Shown: one piece after another, positions 550 to 1,551 of the stretch
Numbering within the stretch: position 1 is the stretch's first letter
How the letters are laid out: each line of letters begins with the position of its first letter
Source of the DNA: Escherichia coli
GTDB taxonomy: Bacteria > Pseudomonadota > Gammaproteobacteria > Enterobacterales > Enterobacteriaceae
Reading direction: 5' to 3' (one strand)
NCBI RefSeq assembly: GCF_003334335.1
Contig: NZ_QOWQ01000102.1
Length of the DNA stretch: 1,551 nt
Position numbers and translations under genes: made by a program
The notes under the pieces: model-generated
Told to the model about the DNA's origin: nothing
The model's input: the letters and a program-made list of their open reading frames with translations, nothing else
The model's database searches: none

Positions 550-620
550 AACCCTTTAGCTCAGTGGTAAGAGGACTCATAATCGCTTGGTCGCTGGTTC
601 AAATCCAGTAAGGGCCACCA
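550..620 (+). pseudogene. Degenerate tRNA-Ile(CAU)-like remnant (tRNA-Ile2 / ileX-ileY family); not foldable into a full cloverleaf
   Basis: Seen in sequence: D-arm GCTC(559-562)/AGTGGTAA/GAG; anticodon loop CTCATAA (576-582, anticodon CAT); variable region TGGTC; T-arm GCTGG(593-597)/TTCAAAT/CCAGT(605-609); acceptor 3' strand AAGGGCC (610-616), discriminator A, encoded CCA (618-620). Defects: the acceptor 5' strand reads AACCCTT (550-556) where GGCCCTT is needed, and only GA lies between the D-stem and the anticodon loop, so the 3' anticodon-stem strand TCGCT (583-587) has no partner. From memory of the enterobacterial tRNA-Ile2 sequence this amounts to a deletion of about 5 nt plus a few substitutions. 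Confidence 0.6.
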
Positions 621-931
621 TCACACACTGCCACTGGCCCATTGCGCCATGCCCGGCGCATATCAGCCACAGAGCCTTTCGGGGATAATTTGCAGAGTGG
701 TCTGGCTGACTTTCTCTGTAGGCAGATCGTTCCCGCTTGATAGCTCATCCCCCAAAGAAACGTCACGATATTTGGTATTTTCAAAATTCAAAAAGAAAAC
801 CCGCAGAGTGGCAACAGAGATTAAAAAGTTTGAGAAACGCGATCTGGCACAGGCGGTGATTGGTGTTGGAGTGATGGTAGATTTTATCAGCCGGATAATG
901 TCGGTTCTGGCTGATAGCTGGGGTTGTTGGT

Positions 932-1126
932 GTGGTCTTCCTATTGATGAAAAAACAAGCAATTACTTGGCATATTATCTGTAACACTTTAAAACTGTTA
1001 AGAAGATCACAATTCATTATGTTTATTATTGTCTGGCCGGAGGGATATTTGTTAAAAAGTGCGCCGTGTGGTGAATCCCCCTGTGCGGTGGGGCGACTGG
1101 TGTACATAGCATTTATTATGTTATGA
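932..1126 (+). CDS. Hypothetical small protein (64 aa), unrecognised; likely spurious
   Basis: ORF from the supplied track with a GTG start at 932 and TGA stop at 1124-1126, about 90 nt upstream of the strong plus-strand terminator. It lies in an AT-rich tract and overlaps ORFs 649-984 (+) and 781-1107 (-). No convincing ribosome-binding site and no recognisable motif. Confidence 0.1.
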   Translation: MVFLLMKKQAITWHIICNTLKLLRRSQFIMFIIVWPEGYLLKSAPCGESPCAVGRLVYIAFIML

Positions 1127-1217
1127 GCGAAGCCTACGCGGGTTCAGTGACACCGACTGAATTCACCGGGAGGCACCCGGCACCATGCAACAGACGCAAG
1201 TTAGGCTAAGCCTTATA

Positions 1218-1246
1218 CCCCTGTAAGTTTTTTACAGGGGTTTTTT
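1218..1246 (+). terminator. Rho-independent terminator (perfect 9-bp stem, 5-nt loop, T6 tract)
   Basis: CCCCTGTAA (1218-1226) pairs perfectly with TTACAGGGG (1232-1240) around loop GTTTT, followed immediately by TTTTTT (1241-1246). Confidence 0.7.
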
Positions 1247-1254
1247 GTGCACAG

Positions 1255-1277
1255 AAAACCCCCAGCTAGGCTGGGGG
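1255..1277 (-). terminator. Candidate rho-independent terminator for minus-strand transcription (convergent with the 1218-1246 terminator)
   Basis: CCCCCAGC (1259-1266) pairs with GCTGGGGG (1270-1277) around a 3-nt loop. On the minus strand the hairpin is followed by TTTTCTGT (complement of 1251-1258). The U-tract is only 4 nt, so this is weaker than the plus-strand terminator. Confidence 0.4.
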
Positions 1278-1551
1278 TTCCGGAAAGCTTTCAGCTTTGA
1301 GCCAGTTATTAAAACTCTGAACCGGTTCCTGGCACGAATATCATTCCCGGCCTGCGCTTTGATTATCTCAGCGACTCCGGCGGGAACTTCAGCCGCAGTC
1401 TGAATCTTTCGCAGGAATTGGGCGATTATTTCAAAGTCAAAGCAGGGGTTGCCCGAACCTTTAAAGCCCCAAACTGTACTGACCCCAAAAAGTTGGACAG
1501 TTAAACACGAGGCATATAGGTCTGATTCCGATATTCAATTGGAGTCAGACC

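Follow-up and report, generated by a model that had tools for sequence, protein, structure and literature searches.

Two adjacent GC-rich hairpins in a 1,551-nt stretch of Escherichia coli DNA (the whole of which we call the window) very probably belong to two different known elements that lie head to tail on one strand. The first (hairpin 1) is, by its alignment to the Rfam family, the Rho-independent terminator of a non-coding RNA of about 210 nt belonging to the STnc100 family, and the second (hairpin 2) is, by nucleotide identity, the subterminal left-end hairpin of a truncated IS200. The features of the window are listed below, with the kind of evidence in brackets.

550-617, plus strand: decayed phage tRNA pseudogene, Ile-type, with CAU anticodon (Rfam tRNA match, identity to the intact prophage L129)
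1036-1250, plus strand: STnc100-family sRNA gene (Rfam RF02076), full-length and prophage-borne (cmscan)
1217-1246, plus strand: intrinsic terminator of the sRNA, formed by hairpin 1 and its T-tract (scan, fold, Rfam alignment)
1218-1226 and 1232-1240, plus strand: the two arms of the hairpin 1 stem, CCCCTGTAA and TTACAGGGG (read from the sequence)
1246-1315, plus strand: IS200 left-end remnant, IS200 nt 1 to ~70 (identity to the IS200 of locus L003)
1257-1279, either strand: hairpin 2, the IS200 left-end (LE) hairpin, IS200 nt 12-34 (24-mer matches, fold)
1259-1277: core of hairpin 2, CCCCCAGC-TAG-GCTGGGGG (read from the sequence)
1319-1474, plus strand: internal fragment of iroN, a salmochelin receptor pseudogene (translation, profile, DNA identity)
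1475-1551, minus strand: end of an IS150 copy (IS3 family) inserted in iroN (annotation in loci L001 and L002)

Results

Structure and folding of the two hairpins

Both hairpins described in an earlier note on this DNA are present where it had placed them, with the second 12 nt beyond the first, and its call of hairpin 1 as a plus-strand intrinsic terminator is borne out. The 9-bp stem of hairpin 1, which may be extended by an A1217-T1241 pair (to 1217-1241), is followed directly on its 3' side by six T residues (1241-1246). Its RNA folds at -15.5 kcal/mol (z = -4.9), and it was the sole call, on the plus strand, of a simple consensus terminator scan of the window. Hairpin 1 on the plus strand has both the GC-rich stem-loop and the U-rich tract of an intrinsic terminator. 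A spacer of 12 nt (1247-1258) separates the T-tract from the core of hairpin 2, whose stem can be extended to AACCCCCAGC/GCTGGGGGTT (1257-1279).

As the earlier note had also read it, TTTTCTGT comes after hairpin 2 on the minus strand. The minus-strand transcript would have 4 U and then CUGU after the stem, and the scan did not call it as a terminator; on the plus strand hairpin 2 has no U-tract. Tail scores, calculated in the style of TransTermHP with our own re-implementation, were -5.24 for hairpin 1 (plus), -3.5 for hairpin 2 on the minus strand and -1.5 for hairpin 2 on the plus strand. The earlier note had said that fold predictions of a second hairpin too weak to terminate would speak against its reading. 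Hairpin 2 folds at -20.4 kcal/mol (z = -3.7) on the minus strand and at -18.7 kcal/mol (z = -3.5) on the plus strand. The whole 72-nt stretch that carries both hairpins gave z = -4.2 (plus) and -5.6 (minus). None of 200 dinucleotide-preserving shuffles, which served as the null for all folds, folded equally well in any of these cases.

These results bear on the possibility that the hairpins are functionless palindromes which arose by chance in GC-rich intergenic DNA, an idea that homology refutes and to which we assign next to no probability. The window holds one terminator-like site, no more than its shuffles do (mean of 1.3), so that the number of motifs alone is no proof of non-randomness. 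However, no shuffle matched any of the folds, both hairpins occupy conserved positions of curated RNA and IS families, and a 24-mer that starts with hairpin 2 (AACCCCCAGCTAGGCTGGGGGTTC, 1257-1280) recurs as an exact match in at least 120 loci. It is thus homology that proves non-randomness, with both hairpins being conserved parts of known families.

An STnc100-family sRNA gene ends at hairpin 1

The earlier note suggested that at least one of the transcripts ending here may be non-coding, and the plus-strand one indeed belongs to an sRNA gene. The cmscan search returned a full-length match to the STnc100 family (138.5 bits, where the gathering score is 47; E = 4.7e-32; positions 1-206 of the 206-position model), in which hairpin 1 is aligned to the terminal stem-loop of the Rfam model. 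The core of the sRNA (1069-1190) is 93% identical to the STnc100 copy of L129, an intact lambdoid prophage, and the STnc100 core was found in 358 phage records, mostly of Stx-converting phages, out of 50,697 phage records searched. STnc100 is a gammaproteobacterial sRNA carried by prophages. Most Stx phages are described as having it, at a distance of 75 nt downstream from stx2B (PMC12370729), and a common ancestry with PasD has been proposed (bioRxiv 10.64898/2026.05.13.724894).

The STnc100 copy of L129 (155.8 bits) has a terminator of the form GCCCCTC-TCCG-GAGGGGC plus T6 at the same model positions as hairpin 1. The terminator structure is common to the two copies, whereas the terminator sequence is completely different. 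Judging from these alignments, the 3' module of this STnc100 copy appears to have been exchanged, and its seed may be a different one. Nothing similar to 1191-1246, the final ~55 nt of the sRNA, was found in the L129 prophage copy or in any phage record. A small hairpin, AGGC-TAA-GCCT, is found within this unmatched 3' end at about 1203-1213.

For this candidate sRNA copy, no sigma-70 promoter upstream of 1036 on the plus strand passed our promoter scan, and only a -10-like TATTAT can be read from the sequence at 1024-1029. We infer that hairpin 1 still terminates the sRNA at this locus, and its U-tract probably now consists of the host T residues 1241-1245 together with T1246, which is nucleotide 1 of IS200.

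The second hairpin is the left end of a truncated IS200

Positions 1239-1315 of the window are 100% identical over 77 nt, by alignment and blastn, to positions 2001-2077 of L003, an E. coli locus in which this stretch lies upstream of an annotated IS200/IS605 tnpA between brnQ and proY. The identity with IS200 ends at 1315/1316. A megablast search with positions 1030-1465 revealed that ~1241-1315 is a dispersed repeat, found in up to 36 places per genome, and in two further loci (L004 and L128) the same sRNA variant stands directly before a complete IS200. With IS200 numbered according to PMC4513863, hairpin 2 (1257-1279) is nt 12-34, which puts nt 1 at 1246, and the remnant has the same orientation as the sRNA.

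The complete element is 707 bp long (PMC4513863, PMC5435999). Its hairpin at nt 12-34 is described as a strong, bidirectional Rho-independent terminator that stops ~85% of impinging transcription and shields tnpA, thus keeping it silent. The tnpA transcript starts at ~nt 40, its ribosome-binding site is sequestered by another inverted repeat (nt 69-138), and art200, a 90-nt RNA, is antisense to the 5'UTR and first three codons of tnpA (all from PMC4513863 and PMC5435999). Hairpin 2 does look like a minus-strand terminator in its sequence, as the earlier note had it, and the homologous hairpin of IS200 is described as acting in both directions (PMC4513863, PMC5435999).

Only the beginning of this element is present in the window. 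The remnant has retained the left-end hairpin and ~36 nt beyond it, including the region of the tnpA transcription start, and has no second inverted repeat, art200 gene, tnpA or right end. The iroN fragment is found in the place, ~133 nt downstream of hairpin 2, where tnpA would be, and the right-end hairpin with its T-rich terminus, which is present in the full copies in L003 and L128, is absent from the window. Positions 1246-1315 are thus a dead transposon end that can neither move nor be mobilised. The IS200 hairpins were originally described by Beuzon et al. 1999, as cited in PMC4513863 and PMC5435999.

By analogy with the intact element, hairpin 2 may still be able to block transcription from either side at this locus. 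It is probably also the hairpin that is bound by the Y1 transposase, a role suggested by analogy with IS608 and ISDra2 and by the identity of 17 of its 23 positions with the right-end hairpin of IS200 (AACCTCCGGCTATGCCGGAGGAT).

In one E. coli strain (L005, 4230-4250) an IS4 is inserted in the IS200 left-end hairpin after the same sRNA. Similarity to the window stops there in the middle of hairpin 2, and the locus was considered as an empty site and rejected on account of the IS4 within the IS200 hairpin.

A match to the STnc490/art200 model without an art200 gene

The window also contains an Rfam match to STnc490 (RF01405) at 1257-1343 on the plus strand, which starts exactly with hairpin 2 and scores 62.4 bits, over the gathering score of 56. 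An intact IS200 left end scores 146 bits with the same model, and the score in the window is owed to model positions 1 to about 64 only. In practice, the STnc490 model describes the IS200 left end from nt 12 to ~135 in the sense of tnpA. The RNA first named STnc490 is now called art200 and is antisense to the transposase gene of IS200 (PMC4513863). Based on the start position of tnpA, we placed art200 at about nt 66-155, which is almost wholly beyond the truncation at ~nt 70, so there is no art200 gene in the window. The Rfam STnc490 model can therefore fire on dead IS200 ends that have no art200 gene, and automatic annotation would wrongly report an STnc490/art200 sRNA on this 70-nt IS200 stump.

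The right side of the window and transcription towards hairpin 2

The earlier note had found no confident coding sequence on either side of the hairpins. This was half right, as the side to the right holds a fragment of an iroN pseudogene. The plus-strand translation of 1319-1474 (EPVPGTNIIPGLRFDYLSDSGGNF...) matches the FepA-family TonB-dependent receptor at profile positions 434-485 of 727 (E = 2.4e-22), and positions 1318-1465 are 98.6% identical to annotated iroN DNA. The fragment is fused to IS200 nt ~70 by a deletion or rearrangement. Its reading frame stops at 1474, and a sequence beginning TGTACTG starts at 1475. In L001 and L002, the annotation has an IS150 transposase gene that occupies the minus strand from window position 1501 onwards and reads towards hairpin 2, and iroN resumes exactly 1443 bp further on, past IS150.

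The central proposal of the earlier note was that this is the meeting point of two convergent transcription units, in which case hairpin 1 would end a plus-strand unit and hairpin 2 an independent minus-strand unit, resident here and possibly non-coding. We consider this very improbable. The minus strand of hairpin 2 does continue into UUUUCUGU, with a tail score of about -3.5, and the minus-strand frame over 1250-1465 is free of stops. In addition, the STnc100 terminator of L129 is met 6 nt on by the minus-strand terminator of another sRNA, AgvB. However, hairpin 2 and the next 36 nt are IS200 nt 12-70 in the orientation of the sRNA, leaving the hairpin as an IS200 end with no resident minus-strand gene. 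No minus-strand Rfam match passed its threshold, with the one to STnc490 reaching 23.7 bits against a gathering score of 56, and the promoter scan found no promoter-like site on the minus strand within 1280-1551. As for the open frame, positions 1319-1474 are plus-strand iroN, so that it lies antisense to a real gene.

A minus-strand gene in this open frame (minus frame 1, without a stop codon over 1250-1465) was tried as a candidate and rejected for being simply antisense to plus-strand iroN. Across 1280-1474 no minus-strand gene, Rfam family or promoter-like site was found. Instead of one unit on each strand converging on the hairpins, the plus strand has the sRNA and the nearest minus-strand gene is the IS150 transposase. 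The only transcription that might reach hairpin 2 from the right is read-out from IS150.

Such read-out is the premise of another possibility, which is compatible with the pair being an sRNA terminator and an IS200 end but which we regard as unlikely. The hairpin of the dead IS200 stump may have been exapted as a local terminator or insulator that stops IS150 read-out from running antisense into the sRNA and that backs up hairpin 1 on the plus strand. The minus-strand IS150 transposase points at hairpin 2 from ~220 nt away, the stem is stable (-20.4 kcal/mol), and the IS200 hairpin is reported to be bidirectional and ~85% efficient. Against this, IS150 read-out is hypothetical, the locus is a heap of pseudogenes, making selection for insulation doubtful, and the arrangement is rare, with 48 genomes having it among 5,426 complete ones of E. 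coli.

Probable prophage origin of the locus

Positions 78-1551 of the window are 99.6% identical to 48 of the 5,426 complete E. coli genomes, where the locus is part of a much decayed island, next to iroN/E/D/C. The intact lambdoid prophage L129 has a late region with which the window is collinear, and in the pathogenicity island only remnants of the prophage are left. The order in L129 is Q antiterminator, tRNA-Ile/Arg/Arg, TerB, DUF3927, STnc100, AgvB, DUF6645, holin and lysozyme. Window positions 552-642 are 85% identical to the tRNA-Ile region of L129 (2324-2419), and positions 644-861 are 81% identical to the stretch before TerB. The tRNA-like sequence at 550-617 scores 30.7 bits with Rfam, just over the gathering score, and has ~5 nt missing from its anticodon stem; ARAGORN found no tRNA in the window. 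This weak match together with the 85% identity to the L129 tRNA-Ile indicates a decayed phage tRNA pseudogene. An ORF of 111 amino acids at 649-984 had no NCBIfam match.

The first 77 nt of the window fall outside the best E. coli matches, which start at 78, and are probably another IS or a rearrangement junction. Within them, nucleotides 43-72 match the opposite strand of L128 over a short stretch close to an IS1.

A genuine convergent pair of sRNAs is found in L129 at the position where the window has its IS200. In this prophage (3941-4207), STnc100 on the plus strand and AgvB on the minus strand (96.5 bits) stand terminator to terminator, 6 nt apart. AgvB is an anti-GcvB sRNA (Tree et al. 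2014, PMC4104026). Searching the window with Rfam down to E = 1 yielded neither AgvB nor any other minus-strand sRNA.

IS200-group elements insert behind terminators

We compared the filled site in L003 with the empty brnQ-proY site of K-12, which places the IS200 within the T-tract of the brnQ terminator. The filled site reads GTGG-TTTTTT[GTGCACAG...GGAGGATATTTATTT]ATTGTG, with no target duplication and with a boundary ambiguity of at most 3 T relative to the empty site. For the sRNA locus, no such empty counterpart, with this sRNA 3' variant but without IS200, was found in a search of 5,426 E. coli genomes and of 50,697 phage records. All E. coli copies of this sRNA terminator carry the IS200 end, which argues for a single ancestral insertion.

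The exact matches to the 24-mer (at least 120 loci), in a scan of one genome per species, came from a wide range of hosts. They included Yersinia pestis, in which the element is IS1541, Vibrio, Brenneria, Edwardsiella, Pluralibacter and Mailhella/Desulfovibrio, as well as Bacillota, Peptococcaceae, Oxalobacter, Saccharibacteria and Elusimicrobia. In 59 of the 62 copies with enough downstream sequence, a homologue of tnpA (74-93% identical) starts ~133 nt downstream on the same strand.

When the left flanks of these copies were oriented, a GC-rich host hairpin and a T-run were seen just before the IS end in almost all of them, the hairpins having the same orientation as IS200/IS1541. A strict terminator motif was found in 95 of 120 unique IS200-group left flanks (79%) but in only 6 of 113 control sequences 300 nt further upstream (5%), in a sample that was selected by the exact 24-mer and that is dominated by about 55 copies from one Y. 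pestis genome. Likewise, a hairpin stood just upstream of 59 of 75 runs of at least five T at the IS flanks (79%), compared with 189 of 2,762 such runs elsewhere in the same loci (6.8%). Between the end of the host stem and the IS hairpin there are 12-21 nt, and the two junction bases are T in 118 and 107 of the 120 flanks. An IS200-group insertion therefore regularly leaves a terminator, ~10 nt and then a second hairpin as its footprint, and this pattern is not a sign of converging genes.

The excess of terminators at IS200 flanks could reflect the survival of harmless insertions as well as the choice of target. That the transposases of this group actively select intrinsic terminators as integration sites, beyond insertions merely surviving better there, seems to us a plausible reading, although we lean slightly against it. 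The proposed mechanism is that a host hairpin with its T-rich tail would mimic the right end of IS200 (a hairpin plus ATATTTATT). If true, active targeting would account for the tight phasing of the insertions (12-21 nt) and the near-invariant TT at the junction, for tandem IS1541 copies following the right end of another copy and for a pile-up of terminator-seeking elements in L128, and the left-end 24-mer would be under extreme constraint. When we searched the literature for an explicit statement that IS200 or IS1541 targets terminators, we came upon only a 2025-26 preprint on terminator enrichment.

The 24-mer is identical across distant phyla and groups (Enterobacterales, Vibrio, Desulfovibrionaceae, Bacillota, Saccharibacteria and Elusimicrobia) in a sample that was itself selected by the 24-mer, while element subfamilies diverge in the 10 nt that precede it and in the sequence that follows. 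This pattern suggests either very strong constraint or recent horizontal spread.

Two further arrangements were observed. First, four Yersinia pestis loci (L070, L071, L073 and L117) have tandem IS1541 copies, in which a left end comes directly after a right-end hairpin plus ATATTTATT; this is consistent with a right end that resembles the preferred target. Second, in E. coli O55:H7 (L128, 6840-7160), a sequence starting ATGTGCG comes 2-3 nt after an IS200 right-end hairpin plus TTTATTT, together with a match to a domain of group II introns (RF02001, 113 bits). Insertion after terminators is known for some bacterial introns of this group. Here the intron may have taken the right end of IS200 for a terminator, or both elements may have hit the same sRNA terminator.

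Discussion

History of the locus

Our combined findings give the following order of events. An STnc100-family sRNA gene with its terminator, of a kind carried in the late region of lambdoid (Stx-type) prophages, is part of a decayed prophage remnant. An IS200 integrated at the T-tract of the sRNA terminator, in the orientation of the sRNA. Elements of this group integrate a few nucleotides after a hairpin and T-run, without target duplication, and such an insertion gives a host terminator, ~10 nt and the IS hairpin every time, so that the spacing is no coincidence. A later deletion took away all of IS200 past nt ~70 and left the stump joined to the middle of iroN, which IS150 then split.

Both elements have been described before, and the finding is an ordinary one that is explained. 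The locus is a junkyard of known elements, consisting of a prophage remnant, an IS200 stump, an iroN fragment and IS150, and it is present in less than 1% of complete E. coli genomes; in it, the sRNA terminator of a prophage remnant became a landing pad for mobile DNA. The practical lesson lies in annotation. When a real terminator is immediately followed by a hairpin that resembles a terminator of the opposite strand, the left end of an IS200-group element can be diagnosed quickly, even for a 70-nt stump without an annotated transposase gene. An annotator who took hairpin 2 as evidence for a convergent transcript, possibly a non-coding one, would introduce a false gene.

Comparison with known systems

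The sRNA gene of the window resembles known STnc100 in its full-length match to the model, its conserved core and its terminal stem-loop with a U-tract. Its surroundings, although degraded to fragments, are collinear with a lambdoid late region (tRNA, TerB, DUF3927, sRNA). It differs from the L129 copy in the last ~55 nt, which are wholly different, terminator included. The surroundings differ as well, with the window copy being in a decayed island next to an IS200, and the L129 copy in a prophage next to AgvB and the DUF6645 gene.

Compared with IS200 and IS1541, the remnant has an identical hairpin, is 100% identical to E. coli IS200 copies over nt 1-70 and is sited, as are most copies, just after the T-tract of a host terminator. 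Unlike the intact element, it stops at ~nt 70, with the second inverted repeat, art200, tnpA and the right end missing. It has in common with art200/STnc490 a score over the gathering threshold of the Rfam model, but the art200 gene itself is missing, since only the first ~60 model positions are present.

The closest parallel to the arrangement proposed by the earlier note is the STnc100/AgvB pair, in which a GC-rich hairpin resembling a minus-strand terminator likewise comes right after the STnc100 terminator. In that pair, however, the second hairpin ends a real minus-strand sRNA, whereas in the window it is the end of a transposon.
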